Of a DNA stretch of 23,768 nt, positions 1 to 23,768 are shown one piece after another. Position numbers and translations under genes: made by a program. The stretch is taken from the IMG/VR virus record IMGVR_UViG_2778261225_000015; one strand, given 5' to 3'. Source of the DNA: a virus. Its lineage: Duplodnaviria > Heunggongvirae > Uroviricota > Caudoviricetes. Numbering within the stretch: position 1 is the first letter of the stretch; each line of letters opens with the position of its first letter. The notes below the pieces were generated by a model that made no database searches, was not told the DNA's origin, and was given only the letters and a program-made list of their open reading frames with translations.

Positions 1-12
1 TATCCGCTGGAG

Positions 13-405
13 ATGAAAGAGGATTACACTCAAGCTGACTCATGGCCAGATGATGCTGTTGAAGTTGATGAGCAAGCGTATATTGAGTTTTCCGGATTAC
101 CGCCGAAAGGAAAAATCCGTATCGCTGGAGAAAATGGTTTTCCTGCATGGTCTGAAATTCCACCACCAACACATGAGGAACAGATTGCTGCAGCCGAACT
201 GGAAAAGCAGCAACTGATTAATCAGGCCAACGATTATATGAACAGTAAACAATGGCCTGGTAAAGCGGCTATTGGTCGCCTGAAAGGTGAGGAACTGGCG
301 CAATATAATTTGTGGCTGGATTATCTGGACGCACTGGAACTGGTCGATACCTCCAGTGCTCCAGATATTGAATGGCCTACGCCTCCGGCAGTTCAGGCCA
401 GATGA
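13..405 (+). CDS. Tail fibre assembly protein (Tfa/gpG-like), alternate copy; frame is open back to position 1 so the true 5' end probably lies upstream of the window
   Basis: C-terminal block LWLDYLDALELVDTSSAPDIEWP parallels LNAVLDYIDAVTATDTSTAPDVIWP of the convergent ORF 377..979; no stop between position 1 and the first ATG at 13. Confidence 0.7.
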   Translation: MKEDYTQADSWPDDAVEVDEQAYIEFSGLPPKGKIRIAGENGFPAWSEIPPPTHEEQIAAAELEKQQLINQANDYMNSKQWPGKAAIGRLKGEELAQYNLWLDYLDALELVDTSSAPDIEWPTPPAVQAR

Positions 406-979
406 CATCCGGCGCGGTGCTGGTATCTGTTGCCGTCACCGCGTCAATGTAATCCAGCACGGCGTTAAGTCGGGTTGTTTCTGCCTGCGTCAACTTCCGT
501 CCGGCCTGTAATTTCAGCTGAATCAGACTAATGGAAGCCATTGCTGCATCAATCAGTGACTGGCGCTGTGCTTCTGCCGCGTCTACTGCGGCACTATGCT
601 GTGCCTCAGTATCCGTCACCCATTTCTCACCATCCCATTTATCATATGGCGTTAACGGGGCGATAGTGGTTGTATTTTCAGGGTAATCACCCGGAGCTGT
701 GATTTCTTTCGATTCTCCTGTTTCGGTGCTATAGATGATTTCACCGCGATGGTCTGGCACATATTCCCATGAGTTAAAATCTGCAGAACGGCAGATTGCA
801 TAACCAGCTTTATGTGTAACTGGTGCATCTAAACAAGAACATGCCGGGATACCGACGCCAACCGCAAGATATTCAGTTGATGTGGAAATATATTCCCGCG
901 TTTCACCATCATAATTATAAATGGTAATGTCTCCCGCTTTTATGGCAATGAGTTCGTTATTTAATACGGCTTTATTCAT
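377..979 (-). CDS. Tail fibre assembly protein (Tfa, P2 gpG-like)
   Basis: 200-aa ORF immediately downstream of the tail fibre gene on the same strand (1-nt overlap); Tfa-type C-terminal motif; converges tail-to-tail with the Tfa paralog 13..405. Confidence 0.8.
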   Translation of the reverse strand: MNKAVLNNELIAIKAGDITIYNYDGETREYISTSTEYLAVGVGIPACSCLDAPVTHKAGYAICRSADFNSWEYVPDHRGEIIYSTETGESKEITAPGDYPENTTTIAPLTPYDKWDGEKWVTDTEAQHSAAVDAAEAQRQSLIDAAMASISLIQLKLQAGRKLTQAETTRLNAVLDYIDAVTATDTSTAPDVIWPELPEA

Positions 980-2046
980 CAGGCAGCCCTCACGATATAA
1001 TTAAAGGCAATGTTACGAGGTCGGTTTTCGTTTGCAGTTGGAACAACTCTGGAAGCATCGAATGTTACTCGCTTTGCATAACCACCTTTAATTGAATCAG
1101 ATGAAGCATCTCCGATGACGCTGGTTGTAAAAACGCCAGAATCAGAAGGGTAGGTATTAAACCTGACATCCACTAATGCACCAATTATATTTCGAATGGC
1201 ATCTCCCTGTGACGAAAGCAAGCTACGGTTAGTATCTATTCCTCTTCCGTCATCCCAGCCACGAATGAACTCACCACGTAAATCAGGCAATTTATTTGTC
1301 GGGTAAGCCTTTGCCAGTTCCGGGTATTCTTCAGCAGAAAAAGCCGCACCGTTGCATTTCAGCCAGCCTGTTGGCGGAGTGGCGGAAGGCCACGGAACAG
1401 GCACACCAACGGGTAATGCCGAACCTTCTCCCAAACCAAGGTTTTTGAGAACCTCAGCAACCAATCCGGCGTCGGCCATTTCTTTTAGTGCGTTCGCAAT
1501 CAGCGGGTATTGCTTATGCGGGTTAGCCTTTGCCTCATGATCTTTCATGAGTTTGTCGGCGTAGCTCTTCACCTCGATGACTGCATCGTCGACATATTTA
1601 CGGGTTGCCAGCACGACTGACGGGTCGATTTTTAAGGTGATCGCCGAAGTGCTCGAGACAACGAGAATCATGCGAATGGTCTGCGTTCGGCCGCTCCCCT
1701 CAGCCAGTAACGGTTTATAGGTTTCCGGGCAGTTGGCGACAGCAATCAGGATACCTTCATCATCGTAAAGACCGATTTCGCGGATAAAGAAACCGCCCTC
1801 GTTTTCCGGGATGATCTGCTCGGCAATAATCTGACCGGTGTCGTTAGCATCTACTGCCAGTGAATTTAGCAGCTCGCGGCGACGCTCGTTAATGAGCTTT
1901 GTCTGAGCCGGGTCAGGTGTCGGCAGTGTGCCGTTTCCGTCCCCGACGGCCATTTGTGTAATATTCAGTTTAGTACCGAGTGCGGTCGCGTTTGCCAGTC
2001 GCGCCGCGCCCTGATGGGTCAGAATGGCAAAATATTTAGTCGTCAT
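979..2046 (-). CDS. H: Tail fibre protein H (conserved P2-type N-terminal part plus variable C-terminal receptor-binding part with tail-collar-like motif)
   Basis: N-terminus MTTKYFAILTHQGAARLANA...MAVGDGNGTLPTPD resembles the P2 gpH N-terminus as recalled; C-terminal PVGVPVPWPSATPPTGWLKCNGAAFSAEEYPELAKAY is a tail-collar-type motif; ATGA overlap with gene I. Confidence 0.85.
   Translation of the reverse strand: MTTKYFAILTHQGAARLANATALGTKLNITQMAVGDGNGTLPTPDPAQTKLINERRRELLNSLAVDANDTGQIIAEQIIPENEGGFFIREIGLYDDEGILIAVANCPETYKPLLAEGSGRTQTIRMILVVSSTSAITLKIDPSVVLATRKYVDDAVIEVKSYADKLMKDHEAKANPHKQYPLIANALKEMADAGLVAEVLKNLGLGEGSALPVGVPVPWPSATPPTGWLKCNGAAFSAEEYPELAKAYPTNKLPDLRGEFIRGWDDGRGIDTNRSLLSSQGDAIRNIIGALVDVRFNTYPSDSGVFTTSVIGDASSDSIKGGYAKRVTFDASRVVPTANENRPRNIAFNYIVRAA
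1426..1451. other. Candidate 26-bp crossover site for a Hin/Gin/Cin/Pin-family DNA invertase (hix/gix-like), inside the H coding sequence
   Basis: TTCTCCCAAACCAAGGTTTTTGAGAA: imperfect palindrome with AAACC-AA-GGTTT core, close to the hixL sequence as I recall it (TTCTTGAAAACCAAGGTTTTTGATAA); lies at about codons 198-207 of H, where the conserved N-terminus gives way to the variable C-terminus. Confidence 0.55.
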
Positions 2047-4621: not shown

Positions 4622-5965
4622 CTAGCTTGGGGTAACTGTAACCTGACGAGAAAAAACAACAGGCTCCTTCAATTGCTCACATATAATTTTAAAATTAATA
4701 ACTCCAGAGCCAATCGTTAAGGGAATGATGACTATTTCCTCATACTCAACAGTTAAGCTCTGTAACACTTTTTTCGCACGCAACGTGATTTTATGGTCCT
4801 CTTTCATGACCCACTCATCTTGGTTAACTGTTCCTAAATCAGCCATCCGTTTAATTATTGCTGGCACTTCGAAATGAGGTTTAGCCATTACCATCGATGT
4901 ATCATCAAAAATACCCATCCTAAAATTTTCGAGTGACATTATAGCACTGAGTCTTTTTTTATGCTTACTTATTGGGGACTCAGGGATTTTTAATTTCGGC
5001 TCTTTTATAAATAAGTCTTCATTAGAACCTTTAAGCACTATTAGGAATTCAGGAAAATCAATCTCAACATAAACATTTGACGCAAAAGTCCTCCCATTAT
5101 TTCTTAAAACGGGCTTCACTGTAATTGCATTGTTTTTGTAATTACAGTGCAATCTCATTTTTTTATTATATAAATCCACATCTTTATCAGTAGGCAGTGA
5201 AGAGTTATATGATTCAATCTCATCAATGGTGATAGTGTCCTTCAACTCAAGAGGTACCGCTTCCTTGCATAGTTGTGGAAGGTAATCCTGATAAGTCGAC
5301 TCCACATCCACCGTCAAAGCTAAGTCATTATCAATCATGCTCAGCTCTAATTGAGGTGCATCGCTATGTAATTGGCTTTCATATTCGCGGACTTTTTCCC
5401 TTAATTTTCTATTTTCATTAGATAGCTCAGCCAACTCGGCGGTAATCTCTTTAGATGCGACCTGGTCACCGCGCACCCATCCTATTCGTGGATTTCGTCG
5501 CATTACTTTTGGTAAGGCGATAGCAACCTTCGTCGCTAACTCATCAATTGTCTCCCAAAAATCACACATTTTGTTAGCTTTAGCTTTTTCAATAAAAGCA
5601 TTTAGTTGCTTTTCTTTTTGAGGGTCACTTTCTCGTTCATGTGGTTTTGTTAAAACGTCCCTCCCTCTAATAAAAGCCAACACCGGTATATTTAATGATT
5701 TAGCATAGTTATATTCCATTTCAGTATAGCTAATACCATCTTTAGAAACGGACCCATACTTATGCCCAATGATAATCACATAATAATCACTAGCATCAAT
5801 AGTCTCCTTTATTATATCCCACTGCTCAGAGTCATCAGCGCTAAACATCTCCATGCCAACTGGAAAGTGGTATAAACTAAGGACCGTTTCTATGATTTTT
5901 TTGCGAGCATCAATTAAATCGACGTATGTAGAGCTCACAAATACTTGATATTTTTTATTTTCCAT
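4622..5965 (-). CDS. Cargo protein, 447 aa: N-terminal TIR-like/DUF4062-like domain (KYQVFVSSTYVDL...), central coiled coil, C-terminal domain of unknown function; candidate anti-phage defence or exclusion protein
   Basis: Start ATG at 5965 preceded by GAGGA with 4-nt spacing; AT-rich coding sequence embedded between GC-rich S and V genes; N-terminal motif recalled as typical of DUF4062. Confidence 0.75.
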   Translation of the reverse strand: MENKKYQVFVSSTYVDLIDARKKIIETVLSLYHFPVGMEMFSADDSEQWDIIKETIDASDYYVIIIGHKYGSVSKDGISYTEMEYNYAKSLNIPVLAFIRGRDVLTKPHERESDPQKEKQLNAFIEKAKANKMCDFWETIDELATKVAIALPKVMRRNPRIGWVRGDQVASKEITAELAELSNENRKLREKVREYESQLHSDAPQLELSMIDNDLALTVDVESTYQDYLPQLCKEAVPLELKDTITIDEIESYNSSLPTDKDVDLYNKKMRLHCNYKNNAITVKPVLRNNGRTFASNVYVEIDFPEFLIVLKGSNEDLFIKEPKLKIPESPISKHKKRLSAIMSLENFRMGIFDDTSMVMAKPHFEVPAIIKRMADLGTVNQDEWVMKEDHKITLRAKKVLQSLTVEYEEIVIIPLTIGSGVINFKIICEQLKEPVVFSRQVTVTPS

Positions 5966-6002
5966 AACATCCTCACTTGTATAGAAAATAAAATACATAA
6001 AA

Positions 6003-6470
6003 TCAATCAATAGATCTAGCCGCCTCAGCTAAAGAAACCATAATTATGTCATGAATCATATTTTTTGATTCATGATCAAACCCGATAAGCATTCGGGCGT
6101 CATACTGTACCGGCGCACTGTTTCGCCCAGGCTTATCTTTGAGACCGTACTGATGCACATTCGCCATCCGTTGTACCTTGCCGGTAAATTCCACGACCGC
6201 CGAGTCATTCCCCGCTGTGGCTTTCATAAAGCGACTGGTGCGGAGCTTAGCGAACATTTCCCGCTTAACCCGGCCTGTTTTGGCTTTTACCGGCTGGCGT
6301 TTTCGGGCGGCGTAAGGTGTCCCGTCCGGGGCTTTCTGCATTTTAATCCGGCGCTGTTGACGGGCTCGCAGGGTCTTAGCGATATCTGCGGCCATTCTGC
6401 GACGGGCGGCAGGAGACAGCGCTGCTATCAGCCCCGTGAGCGTATCGTCAAAGGGTTTAAAGTCATTCAT
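6003..6470 (-). CDS. S: Tail completion protein S
   Basis: 155 aa, P2 gpS-like sequence and position; overlaps R by 8 nt. Confidence 0.85.
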   Translation of the reverse strand: MNDFKPFDDTLTGLIAALSPAARRRMAADIAKTLRARQQRRIKMQKAPDGTPYAARKRQPVKAKTGRVKREMFAKLRTSRFMKATAGNDSAVVEFTGKVQRMANVHQYGLKDKPGRNSAPVQYDARMLIGFDHESKNMIHDIIMVSLAEAARSID

Positions 6471-7957: not shown

Positions 7958-8162
7958 GAATAACCCCCTTATCAATCCCCATCGAGACGAGATAGCGGTA
8001 TTTCTTTCGCTGGTACCAGAAGTTAACCAGCGCGGTAAAAATGGCGCAGCTTCCCCCGACATAAAGCGCGAGCCGTTCCGGCGTCTGCGTACCGAAATAC
8101 GCCAGCACCACTGACAGCCAGTAGGTCAGAAAGGTTGTGATTTTATCCACAGTCAGTCCCAT
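7941..8162 (-). CDS. Holin (two predicted TM segments, charged C-terminus)
   Basis: 73 aa with TM segments ITTFLTYWLSVVLAYFG and LALYVGGSCAIFTALVNFWY and a basic tail; located between X and the endolysin as in P2 gene Y. Confidence 0.7.
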   Translation of the reverse strand: MGLTVDKITTFLTYWLSVVLAYFGTQTPERLALYVGGSCAIFTALVNFWYQRKKYRYLVSMGIDKGVIRGLIR

Positions 8163-14834: not shown

Positions 14835-15521
14835 TTATTGCTTATCTTGTGGTGGTGGAACCTCTTTTTCTAAATTATCTACATACTCTCTAATATTGAA
14901 TGCTTTGTTTTTCCTTATTTCGGTAGTGTTAACCTTACTAACACCATCACGAATGTTTTTATTTATGGTGTCTATTAATTTTTGTCTTTCTTGTTCTGTT
15001 TTTATTATTTCACTTAAGAATGACTTTGCGTTTCTTGAAATGTCCGTCTGTCTATTAATGAATAGTATCGCATACACTGAAAAAACCAAGCAAGTAGTCG
15101 TTAGTGCGGAATTAAAAAATACCCCATAATAAACATTAACTTTTGTTATTGACGCTGATAACGTTAGTGATATCAAAAAAAACAAAATCAGGGTAAAAAT
15201 ATATGCAATGGTTACTTTGTTTTTAGTGGTGTCAAGAATGTATGAAGTTCTTTGATCATCAAAGTAATCCTTTATCCTTGATGGAGTGTTTGCGGGGAGT
15301 TCTAACTCCTTTATTTTATCATCAGCATCAATTAGTCGCTTAAACATGAGGCTAATGATTACGGCGCTAAAGACAGAGATCCCCTTTGAAATTATAGGAT
15401 CGAAATCAATTAAAAATGAGTATTTTGAATAAACAAAAACAATAACAAAACCACATATAAGCCCAATTACAATTGAGCTTGCTATGTTTTTTGCATATGT
15501 TTGTAACGTATTGTTTATCAT
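14835..15521 (-). CDS. Integral membrane protein, 228 aa, four predicted TM helices (2 + loop + 2) with cytoplasmic charged tail; second gene of a two-gene cargo operon
   Basis: Hydrophobic segments near residues 13-31, 47-60, 114-135 and 141-165; ATGA start/stop overlap with the upstream gene; AT-rich. Confidence 0.7.
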   Translation of the reverse strand: MINNTLQTYAKNIASSIVIGLICGFVIVFVYSKYSFLIDFDPIISKGISVFSAVIISLMFKRLIDADDKIKELELPANTPSRIKDYFDDQRTSYILDTTKNKVTIAYIFTLILFFLISLTLSASITKVNVYYGVFFNSALTTTCLVFSVYAILFINRQTDISRNAKSFLSEIIKTEQERQKLIDTINKNIRDGVSKVNTTEIRKNKAFNIREYVDNLEKEVPPPQDKQ

Positions 15522-16501
15522 GGGTTAATTACTCCGGTGTCTAGTAAGCGCAATAACCATGAAATCATTTCTTCAGCAACGTTGTCAGCAATTAGCATTC
15601 CATTGCTGTATTCAATATTAACTGAATCCTTTAGTTGAATCTCATCATTCCTGAGTATTCCTGCACCTTTTAACTCAATTGTTAAGCTTTCATCTCTATT
15701 ATCAACCAAGCCTTGTGTAATTTTACGCAACATGTCTTGCTCAGACTCGCTTGCTTTATATTTATACCCAATGGAAATATCAATTGATAGAGATTCCCTG
15801 TCAGGTGAACCATCATTTAAAATGGTATTTTTCTTCATTTCATTAATTCGATGTTCACCTACGAGCGTTTTTAATAGCTCACTAGCTGTATCATCAATAT
15901 TATTTCCATAGTAGGTTAAAGGCAGCTTTAAGCTAACATTTTTTACTATGTTACGTTTTAAAAAATCCGTATTTAGAGACAGGTTGTTTGCCTGTAAAAC
16001 GATGAAGTTATCATCAGTAATAGATAGGTTGTCTTGTAGTATGAAATTTATATAATTTTCAATATCTTTTATTCTAATAGATCTGCTTTGCAGAATTATG
16101 AAGTGGTTCTTAATCACACCAATGTATGCAATGCTTTCTAAATACTCTCTAGCATTCCCACTTGATAAATTTAATGTCTCGTATGTTAAAGCTGTTTTAG
16201 CATAATCGCTAACAGAGAAAACAGGAATGCTACTACCCGGTTCAATATAGACAATTTCCGCAAAAAACATTCCATGAATTTCTTTGCTATTTGAAAGAAC
16301 CATGTGGGCGTGAGCAGCGACATTACCATTATTATCTGGAACATCAGGGAAGAATAATCTATCAGCAACATTTGGAACCTTGATTTTCACAAGGTTTGCC
16401 AACCTATCTTGCAGGTTTGATGTTAAAAGAGCATCCTTTTTAGGAAGCATTATTGCATGGCGATAATGCAGCATTTTACTCTTATAATCTTGCGTTGCCA
16501 T
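15518..16501 (-). CDS. Uncharacterised soluble protein, 327 aa; first gene of a two-gene cargo operon at the portal/cos hotspot
   Basis: ATG 16501 preceded by AGAGGGA; no Walker A, HxH or GxSxG motif seen by eye; AT-rich codon usage unlike the phage backbone. Confidence 0.75.
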   Translation of the reverse strand: MATQDYKSKMLHYRHAIMLPKKDALLTSNLQDRLANLVKIKVPNVADRLFFPDVPDNNGNVAAHAHMVLSNSKEIHGMFFAEIVYIEPGSSIPVFSVSDYAKTALTYETLNLSSGNAREYLESIAYIGVIKNHFIILQSRSIRIKDIENYINFILQDNLSITDDNFIVLQANNLSLNTDFLKRNIVKNVSLKLPLTYYGNNIDDTASELLKTLVGEHRINEMKKNTILNDGSPDRESLSIDISIGYKYKASESEQDMLRKITQGLVDNRDESLTIELKGAGILRNDEIQLKDSVNIEYSNGMLIADNVAEEMISWLLRLLDTGVINP

Positions 16502-21811: not shown

Positions 21812-22849
21812 ATGAGTGTTAAAAAACTGACATCGGGTGAATGGCTTTGTGATTTCCGCGTCGACGGGGCTGAAAGTCGCCGCGTGCGTAAGAAGTTTTC
21901 AACCAAAGGTGAAGCCGTTGCCTTCGAGCAGTATTACCGAGAAGAGGCACAAAATAAGCCGTGGATGGGTGAGAAGGAAGACCGTCGACGTTTGAGTGAA
22001 CTGATTGAGCTGTGGCATAACCTCCATGGCCAGTCGCTCGCTGCCAGCAAATCGCGATTGGCCAAACTGCACATTGTTTGCCGGGGTCTTGGCGACCCAA
22101 TCGCTACCCAGCTTACCGCCAAAGATTTCGCCCATTATCGGGATAAACGTCTCAAGGGTGAAATCGACAATGGCTATCACGCAAATTCTGAAAAGTGGAT
22201 TGCGAAACCTGTGACTGTGAACCGGGAACAACAGTACCTCGAAGCTGTTTTCAATGAGCTGAAGCGCTTGGGTGAGTGGAGTCTGCCAAATCCTCTCGAA
22301 GGTGTGCGAGTTTTCAAAGAAGCCGAAAAAGAAATGTCTTGGCTTACCCAGCCTCAAATTCGCGAAGTGCTCAATGCTTGTGAGTCATACGGGAAAATTT
22401 ATTTAACCCGTATCGTCAAAGTGTGCTTAGCGACTGGTGCTCGATGGAGCGAGGCCGAGCGTCTTACTCGTTCACAGCTTTCACCCCACAAGTTGACTTT
22501 CACTAAAACGAAGGGAAAGAAGAATCGTACAGTACCGATCCCTCGGTGGCTATATGACGAGTTGGCTCCTTTACAGGGAAAAATGTTCCACCCCTGCTAT
22601 CAGGAGTTCAAGAAAATGCTCGCTCTGACCGATATAGAGTTAGCTGAAGGGCAAAAAACGCATGTGTTACGTCATACATTTGCGAGTCACTTTATGATGA
22701 ATGGTGGGAACATTTTAGTACTGCAACGAATCTTGGGCCATTCTAACATTAGGGAAACCATGAGATACGCTCATTTTGCACCAGATCATTTAGAAGAAGC
22801 TGTAACTCTTAACCCTATTTCTAATTTAACAGGATTATATGATGAGTGA
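21812..22849 (+). CDS. int: Tyrosine-recombinase integrase
   Basis: 345 aa; C-terminal catalytic block HVLRHTFASHFMMNGGNILVLQRILGHSNIRETMRYAHF (R..H-x-x-R...Y signature). Confidence 0.9.
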   Translation: MSVKKLTSGEWLCDFRVDGAESRRVRKKFSTKGEAVAFEQYYREEAQNKPWMGEKEDRRRLSELIELWHNLHGQSLAASKSRLAKLHIVCRGLGDPIATQLTAKDFAHYRDKRLKGEIDNGYHANSEKWIAKPVTVNREQQYLEAVFNELKRLGEWSLPNPLEGVRVFKEAEKEMSWLTQPQIREVLNACESYGKIYLTRIVKVCLATGARWSEAERLTRSQLSPHKLTFTKTKGKKNRTVPIPRWLYDELAPLQGKMFHPCYQEFKKMLALTDIELAEGQKTHVLRHTFASHFMMNGGNILVLQRILGHSNIRETMRYAHFAPDHLEEAVTLNPISNLTGLYDE

Positions 22850-23768
22850 GCCAACCATCGAAACACCTCCAAGAATGACCGAGGCCAAAGTCATTAGGGT
22901 ACGCACTCGTGGTTTTTATAATTTAGTTGAGATAGGTGCAGTCTTTCTAGTTGCAAATGTAATTTTTGCTACAGGGATATTAGACTCAACCTTTTATTAT
23001 TTATTTCCCAGTGCGAGAGCAGATCTTACACATTTGCCGAGCTTTATCAGGTCAATATTCGCAGTGTCATTTGTAATCGTTTACACCATTATCTATGGTG
23101 TGTCTCCAATCCAAAGAATGTTTATGAGAATTACAGGGAGTGATTCAGTCGACAAATCATCGATGTTTAATATTGTCGATATTATAAATGAGATAAAACT
23201 ACTCAAGAAGGCTCAAGAGGAAAGGGCTGCTGCTGATGAAGATGAATCTCTGGATTTTTATCTTAAAGGTTTGATTAATAGCTCTGAAGGTCTTGCGAAA
23301 AACATATATTCTCGCGGTAGTCTTTATTTATTAGTCGGTGTTTGTTTTGCAATAGTTGGATTAGGTTTCTTCTATTCTCAATCACATGTAATTGATGCTA
23401 AGGATGATGCGGTAACCAAGGTAATGTATCTTCTCCCTAATTTTGGCGTGTTGATTTTCTTGGAGTTAATCGCATTTTTCTTTTTGAAGCAATATCGGGT
23501 TACGATGGATGAGTTTCGCTATTACGAGGCAATAAAACGTTCACGTGAGGAAAGCTATGCCATTATAAAGCTTGTAATGGCTAGCCAGAAAGATATCGAT
23601 ATGATAGACCTTCTGGATAAAATTAATTTTAGCTCAAGAGTTGGAAAACTAGAATCAGGGCAGACTACTGAAATTATTGAAGCAAGAAAATTAGACAAAA
23701 ATGAACTTGAAACCTTAGTAAAGCTTACCGAGGCAGTTGCGGGTAAGATTGGACAGGGAAATAAGTAG
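22839..23768 (+). CDS. Integral membrane protein, 309 aa, four predicted TM helices with cytoplasmic loop and tail; cargo gene downstream of int
   Basis: AGGA upstream of tandem ATGs at 22839/22842; overlaps the int stop by 11 nt; AT-rich; stop codon is the last three bases of the window. Confidence 0.7.
   Translation: MMSEPTIETPPRMTEAKVIRVRTRGFYNLVEIGAVFLVANVIFATGILDSTFYYLFPSARADLTHLPSFIRSIFAVSFVIVYTIIYGVSPIQRMFMRITGSDSVDKSSMFNIVDIINEIKLLKKAQEERAAADEDESLDFYLKGLINSSEGLAKNIYSRGSLYLLVGVCFAIVGLGFFYSQSHVIDAKDDAVTKVMYLLPNFGVLIFLELIAFFFLKQYRVTMDEFRYYEAIKRSREESYAIIKLVMASQKDIDMIDLLDKINFSSRVGKLESGQTTEIIEARKLDKNELETLVKLTEAVAGKIGQGNK

Follow-up and report, generated by a model that had tools for sequence, protein, structure and literature searches.

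A pix-type crossover site within the tail-fibre gene of a P2/186-like Escherichia coli prophage marks one end of an invertible segment

The tail-fibre locus and its crossover site

The window (i.e., the whole 23,768-nucleotide stretch of DNA that was analysed) is a prophage of the P2/186 family. Its minus strand encodes the baseplate genes V, W, J, and I, then the tail-fibre gene H, then a Caudo_TAP chaperone, and farther right in the window lie the capsid and terminase genes, gpA, CII, the CI repressor, and the integrase. Over positions 1-2100, several complete E. coli chromosomes, including that of strain FORC 064, show 100% identity to the window. The parts of the locus outside the window were read in an 18.1-kb stretch of the FORC 064 chromosome (hereafter, L001), in which window base 1 corresponds to position 8001 (Table 1). 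Several further open reading frames (ORFs) were noted. A 462-aa ORF (window 4622-6010, minus strand), which carries only a DUF4062 domain and appears low in G+C by eye, sits between baseplate gene V and the virion-morphogenesis/tail-completion genes in what looks like a cargo (moron) position. Two overlapping ORFs of 228 and 327 aa (14835-15521 and 15518-16501, both minus strand) between the portal gene and the gpA region could be uncharacterised cargo genes, and an ORF of at least 309 aa (22839-23768, plus strand), whose start overlaps the end of the integrase gene, reaches the window edge. PADLOC returned no match for these four ORFs, and Pfam returned none for the latter three.

Table 1 Features of the tail-fibre inversion locus. 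Positions refer to the window unless preceded by L001 (FORC 064); the last four rows are taken from the alignment of the four junctions.
Feature	Position	Strand	Description
gpH-like tail-fibre gene H	979-2046	-	ORF, 355 aa
Constant part of H (residues 1-203)	1440-2046	-	Phage_tail_fib N-terminal domain
Variable part of H, Hv (residues 204-355), StfE-like	979-1437	-	Pfam Collar PF07484, residues 214-261
Crossover site 1, pix-type, 26 bp	1426-1451	-	TTCTCCCAAACCAAGGTTTTTGAGAA
Central (core) dinucleotide of site 1	1438-1439		AA on +, TT on -; putative point of staggered cleavage and strand exchange
Tail-fibre assembly chaperone gene G, TfaE-type, 200 aa	377-979	-	Pfam Caudo_TAP, E 1.7e-32; RefSeq tfaE
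Alternative chaperone gene G', 3' part	1-405	+	Runs off the left window edge; Caudo_TAP, E 2.9e-38 (full gene)
In-window part of invertible segment	1-1437	both	99.9% collinear with interior of flipped prophage, flanks reversed
Alternative tip Hv' (gp53-like)	L001 7605-7943 (window -395..-57)	+	Promoterless fragment
'gp53-like domain-containing' fragment, 130 codons	L001 7551-7943	+	RefSeq annotation in FORC 064
Crossover site 2	L001 7579-7604 (window -421..-396)	+ (opposite strand to site 1)	TTTTCTTAAACGTTGGTTTAGGAGAA
Serine invertase gene, 192 aa	L001 6946-7524 (window -1054..-476)	-	Resolvase and HTH_7 domains; RefSeq 'recombinase family protein'
Candidate Fis enhancer	L001 7440-7502		Within invertase 5' coding region; two Fis-consensus matches
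H-side site, FORC 064 (site 1 in the direction of gene H)			TTCTCAAAAACC TT GGTTTGGGAGAA
Invertase-side site, FORC 064 (site 2)			TTTTCTTAAACG TT GGTTTAGGAGAA
H-side site, PCN033			TTCTCAAAAACC TT GGTTTAGGAGAA
Invertase-side site, PCN033			TTTTCTTAAACG TT GGTTTGGGAGAA

Gene H consists of two parts that meet at crossover site 1. Residues 1-150 match Pfam PF12571 (Phage tail-collar fibre protein, N-terminal; E 1.4e-61), and the constant part, which stays fixed beside gene I, has an N-terminus in common with the 319-aa H' protein of E. coli PCN033. In the variable part, the first 70 residues past site 1 are nearly identical to StfE of prophage e14; the Hv piece is detached in PCN033, where it adjoins the invertase gene. 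The chaperone gene G is co-oriented with Hv. Its counterpart G', a gene of 146 aa in full (L001 7965-8405) that starts 35 bases left of the window, is convergent with G; in the orientation of the window, G is predicted to be expressed and G' to be silent. The 3' ends of the two chaperone genes overlap by 29 bp (window 377-405), similar to tfaP/tfaE in e14, and the middle of the invertible segment therefore codes on both strands. The whole invertible segment measures about 1845 bp between core dinucleotides, with 408 bases of it lying left of the window.

Site 1 had been picked out in an earlier, sequence-only reading of the window as an imperfect 26-bp palindrome with an AAACC-AA-GGTTT core. 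The sequence is as noted there: it is self-complementary at 20 of 26 positions and comprises two 12-bp half-sites around a 2-bp core, i.e., the structure of the Din-family (Hin/Gin/Cin/Pin) sites, and it carries the Din consensus positions TTC...AAAC / GTTT...GAA. Within the 23.8-kb window it occurs once when up to three mismatches are allowed, compared to 0.00 occurrences expected from shuffled sequences. Using the published table of Din-family sites (PMC3241671 Table 3), we found identity at 24/26 positions to pixL of e14 (TTCTCCCAAACC AA GGTTTTCGAGAG) and at 22/26 to hixL (TTCTTGAAAACC AA GGTTTTTGATAA), the latter in agreement with the value of about 22 that had been given; identity to gix is 19/26. 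The label 'hix/gix-like' thus holds for the family, whereas the nearest relative is neither hix nor gix, but the pix site of e14. The placement inside H was also accurate: the peptide EVLKNLGLGE, assigned to roughly codons 198-207, corresponds to residues 198-207, the 26 bp fall within codons 199-207, codon 203 carrying the central dinucleotide, and the Collar domain of the C-terminus begins shortly beyond, as had been described. The half-site at 1440-1451 is outside the invertible segment (constant side) and that at 1426-1437 is inside (variable side). Site 1 is a genuine pix-type crossover site of the Din family and forms one end of an invertible tail-fibre segment.

Partner site, invertase, and reciprocal junctions

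Opposed chaperone genes together with a fibre gene that has an internal hix-like site are the signature of the Mu G, P1 C, and e14 P segments, and the remaining parts of such a module were therefore expected outside the window. A search with a degenerate pattern (up to three mismatches) found no second site within the window, since the left edge of the window is still 396 bases away from it. To the left of window base 1, FORC 064 carries the rest of G', a gp53-like tip, crossover site 2, the invertase gene, and then the tail sheath gene. Site 2 is 55 bp from the invertase start codon, and its reading frame continues into the tip peptide. Sites 1 (minus strand) and 2 (plus strand) are the sole matches to the degenerate pattern (three mismatches) in the 18.1 kb of L001, with 0 expected from shuffles; they are 1847 bp apart from centre to centre in inverted relative orientation and, when read from outside to inside, both have TT as the core and have 21 of 26 positions in common. 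A repeat search of the wider locus misses this pair, given that the longest exact seed common to the two sites is shorter than 8-9 bases; the partner was found by reading the sequence and was confirmed by the pattern search. An inverted copy in the upstream flank, the check that had been put forward for site 1, is thus present in FORC 064 (100% identical) at a distance of 1847 bp and beside an invertase gene. Its absence within a few kb, which had been named as grounds for rejecting the site, applies to the window only, the partner being located past the window edge. A shufflon or other multi-site system (Rci, or the six-site Min type) was ruled out by the presence of only two sites in 18.1 kb and of a serine recombinase.

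The invertase has its catalytic serine at position 9 in the motif YVRVST and shares 81% identity with PinE (e14) and 75% with Gin (Mu); a PDB search matched it to the Gin structure 3UJ3 with an E-value of 1e-86. It keeps the Fis-contact residues of Hin (Q151/R154/L155, in EWAQAGRL) and has arginine at the positions equivalent to Hin 48 and 51. At the position of Hin Lys47, however, residue 46 (RPGLNRALR) is asparagine, whereas PinE and Gin both have lysine. This position contacts enhancer DNA and was always lysine in 15 aligned DNA invertases (PMC3798978). The asparagine could weaken contact with the enhancer, and an altered dependence of the invertase on the enhancer is a possibility.

The 5' end of the invertase gene may contain such an enhancer. 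In the Din family, the enhancer is a 60-bp Fis-bound element located about 100 bp from one of the sites (PMC3798978). Using a degenerate Fis consensus (KNNYRNNWNNYRNNM), we identified two matches in the invertase gene, of which the proximal one (TATCAACAAATGAAC) has its centre 96.5 bp from that of site 2 and the other (GGTCGGGATGTGAGC) 144.5 bp from it, i.e., 48 bp beyond the proximal match. The Fis sites of enhancers are spaced about 48 bp apart. By our estimate, about 0.02 such pairs would occur by chance in 400 nt, and the pair has identical positions in e14; the aligned Mu gin sequence fits as well. The enhancer reading is only suggestive, because the proximal match codes for the conserved catalytic motif, and for the same reason the conservation of these candidate sites is not independent evidence of an enhancer.

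Flanks were compared by DNA alignment and BLAST tables. The prophage of the window is also present in two other complete genomes, those of E. coli PCN033 and strain 1190, with the segment flipped, so that, as the sequence-only reading had proposed, the site marks the boundary of an invertible segment, with hybrid half-sites at this very position. FORC 064, PCN033, and 1190 have identical RefSeq accessions for the DUF4062 protein, V, W, J, I, both chaperones, the invertase, sheath, tube, and tape measure proteins. The interior of the segment is 99.9% identical and collinear between the two states, with the flanks reversed. In the flipped state, H' (319 aa) combines the Phage_tail_fib and Gp53-like_C domains and is followed by G'; both fusions (355 aa and 319 aa) are open and in frame. 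The four junctions (Table 1) are exact reciprocal hybrids, in which the left halves of the sites stay with the flanks and the right halves move with the segment. This pattern places the exchange between site positions 12 and 20, within TTGGTTT (positions 13-19), which includes the core. Among complete genomes with the exact prophage, 9-11 have the orientation of the window and two are flipped. More broadly, junctions between the invertase and the gp53-like tip were found in 112 genomes and those between the invertase and the Collar tip in 848 genomes, with partial matches breaking at the site centre.

The occurrence of both orientations in nature with reciprocal hybrid sites, as compared between genomes rather than within one culture, indicates that the segment has inverted. 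Prophages that are otherwise identical at the protein level, present in both orientations, and bounded by exact hybrid sites require a recent site-specific inversion. RecA-dependent homologous recombination at short inverted repeats, in which the invertase would have no part, could in principle yield the same two orientations, given that the sites are inverted repeats with 21 of 26 bases in common. Nevertheless, the homology extends over no more than 26 bp, with 7 bp as the longest uninterrupted identity at the point of exchange (far below the need of RecA), and this point falls in the core region of a canonical recombinase site that adjoins a Din invertase gene. With flanks that are unrelated beyond the 26 bp, RecA-type recombination is not credible, and we give it almost no weight. 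Hardly more can be said for the idea that the palindrome is a by-product of a conserved fibre peptide (NLGLGE) with no role at the DNA level: although the in-frame motif has conserved counterparts in Mu S (NLGLQE) and e14 StfP (NLGLGE), site 2 retains both the 26-bp structure and the core even though it belongs to no complete gene and is situated in a spacer ahead of a promoterless fragment, and the flipped genomes carry hybrid sites at the DNA level. We regard this as extremely improbable. Site 1 is, with high confidence, a recombination site of a two-site Din-family inversion switch in a P2/186-like prophage.

The 3.1-kb contigs of strain 2020N21-246 had been considered as a sign of mixed orientation and were set aside as uninformative, since a copy of IS1203 lies at the other end and they represent a plasmid fragment.

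Proposed switch and comparison with known systems

Based on gene order and Pfam domains (PF12571 / Collar and Caudo_TAP / Caudo_TAP and Gp53-like_C / Resolvase), the locus has the layout of a tail-fibre inversion module, with its parts in the order H-constant, site 1, Hv(Collar)-G, G'-Hv'(gp53-like), site 2, and invertase. In the proposed switch, each 26-bp site would be bound by a dimer of the 192-aa serine invertase, and the two sites would be brought into synapsis, probably on an enhancer to which Fis binds within the 5' end of the invertase gene. Cleavage of all four strands at the core TT/AA, staggered by 2 nt, would be followed by a 180-degree rotation of half of the tetramer, and religation of the ends would leave the ~1.85-kb segment inverted. 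We infer the cleavage chemistry and the dependence on Fis from homology to Hin, Gin, and Pin.

Because site 1 is in frame within H (N-L-G-L-G-E), either tip can be attached to the fixed promoter and the initial 203 codons. The state of the window provides a 152-residue Collar-type tip with chaperone G (200 aa, TfaE type), and the state of PCN033 and strain 1190 a 116-residue gp53-like tip with chaperone G' (146 aa). Inversion exchanges residues 204-355 of H for the 116-residue tip and switches the chaperone as well. The sequence-only reading had predicted a swap of the last third of H; the C-terminal swap stands, but 'a third' is too low, as 152 of 355 residues (43%) lie past the crossover. 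By analogy with Mu and P1, the two states are expected to be two host-range variants of one phage.

The 355-aa H protein is only one of two expressible tail fibres of the prophage, and the RefSeq 'gp53-like domain-containing protein' and short 'phage tail protein' ORFs are silent cassette fragments rather than independent genes. Assemblies of this region may legitimately differ in orientation. Bet-hedging host-range switches of this kind have been understood since the 1980s, and the known picture of them is unchanged by our findings; the system is a routine case of the textbook phage inversion switch.

The closest relative is the P segment of e14 in E. coli K-12 (pixL/pixR, PinE), which has the same gene order: constant fibre part, pix, tip-chaperone / chaperone-tip, pix, and invertase. 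In addition to the match between site 1 and pixL (24/26), the invertase-side site matches pixR at 24-25 of 26 positions (25/26 in the flipped state), the Collar-type tip and TfaE chaperone correspond to the stfE/tfaE cassette, the core is AA/TT in both, and the invertase is 81% identical to PinE. The two differ in that e14 is a defective lambdoid element, whereas the prophage described here is an intact-looking P2/186-like myovirus with a gpH-type N-terminus (PF12571). Furthermore, the second cassette of e14 encodes StfP instead of a gp53-like tip, and PinE has lysine at the Hin-Lys47 position, where asparagine is found here.

The architecture is also shared with the G segment of Mu (gix, Gin) and the C segment of P1 (cix, Cin), in which the order is Sc, gix, Sv-U / U'-Sv', gix, and gin. 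In Mu, gix is in frame in the fibre gene with N-L-G-L in the same register, the invertase here is 75% identical to Gin, and its 5' DNA aligns with the gin region, the two Fis-consensus matches included. Compared to Mu, however, site 1 matches gix at 19/26 positions only, the core reads TT/AA where Mu has TC/GA, the segment is shorter (1.85 kb compared to about 3 kb), and the sites have 21/26 positions in common, whereas those of Mu lie in perfect 34-bp repeats. The Hin/hix system of Salmonella resembles the present one in its site (22/26 to hixL, with the AA core shared), its recombinase subfamily, and its conserved Fis-contact residues, with the comparison to Hin in the PDB search made by the DNA-binding domain only. 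Hin flips a promoter, whereas here a coding segment is flipped that exchanges protein C-termini.

The P2-like prophages of E. coli E2348/69 and Fels-2 of Salmonella (Fin) are P2-family prophages that have Din invertases and invertible fibre segments, as is the case here. Fibre segments of e14 and of P2-like prophages of E. coli flip in clonal cultures, based on paired-end sequencing and PCR (PMC4272514), and inversion in Fels-2 is attributed to Kutsukake et al. 2006, as cited in that paper. Because the E2348/69 locus compared below is a truncated remnant, it could not be equated with any of the loci seen flipping in PMC4272514.

The site as a joint between unrelated phages and in other records

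In other phages, homology to the Collar-tip and chaperone cassette ends within a few bases of the site (BLAST breakpoint window 1444-1451). Such a breakpoint was found in the stf genes of HK97 and HK106, in pro483, 500465-1, Klebsiella phages, and Citrobacter phage Omnitron. The stf gene of HK97, a phage without the invertase, keeps TTCTCCCAAACC AA GGTTT (L009 2637-2662) and then diverges. Since homology stops at the site in these phages, the site is also a mosaic joint between unrelated phages. In a related P2-like remnant in E2348/69 (L004 ~5379-5395), the invertase, site 2, both chaperones, and the Collar tip are still present. The remnant breaks off within site 1, two bases beyond the core (TTCTCCCAAACCAAGG followed by gaaagaag), where it is joined to a tyrosine-integrase pseudogene, and it has lost the constant part of H and all upstream phage genes.

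These breakpoints bear on the possibility that site 1 is the fossil joint of a past horizontal exchange of tail-fibre cassettes in a prophage in which recombination has ceased. The homology breaks in phages that have no invertase, including the inner half-site and core retained by HK97 stf, the one remnant truncated within the site, and the unusual asparagine at the Hin-Lys47 position would all fit such a history. It does not account for an intact invertase ORF with its catalytic serine and DNA-binding domain, an intact partner site with a matching core, or otherwise protein-identical prophages in both orientations with exact reciprocal hybrid sites, and we consider it improbable. The inversion switch is, accordingly, the reading that we retain for this prophage.

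A broader role of the site as a portable joint is a more speculative matter. Din invertases might occasionally recombine different DNA molecules or pseudo-sites, thereby moving tip-chaperone cassettes between unrelated phages (with P2/186-like phages, e14, HK97-like lambdoids, and Klebsiella phages as the candidates) and causing truncations such as that in E2348/69. The evidence for this consists solely of homology breakpoints near the core (within a few bases) in hundreds of genomes and several phages, and we view the proposal as doubtful, if worth keeping in mind. The idea itself is reportedly an old one, going back to Sandmeier, Iida and Arber in the early 1990s.

Related cassettes were also present in plasmid records. 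In strain 2020N21-246, a 3095-bp 'plasmid' contig (L007; NZ_JBQJRR010000008.1) begins exactly at the crossover site and carries a related cassette pair with a gp53-like tip that is split by IS1203; the same contig is found in a sister assembly. The same invertible cassette pair occurs in E. coli plasmid records of 66-216 kb (H75-H77, H105), with a recombinase gene adjoining it in one of them, and these records may represent phage-plasmids.
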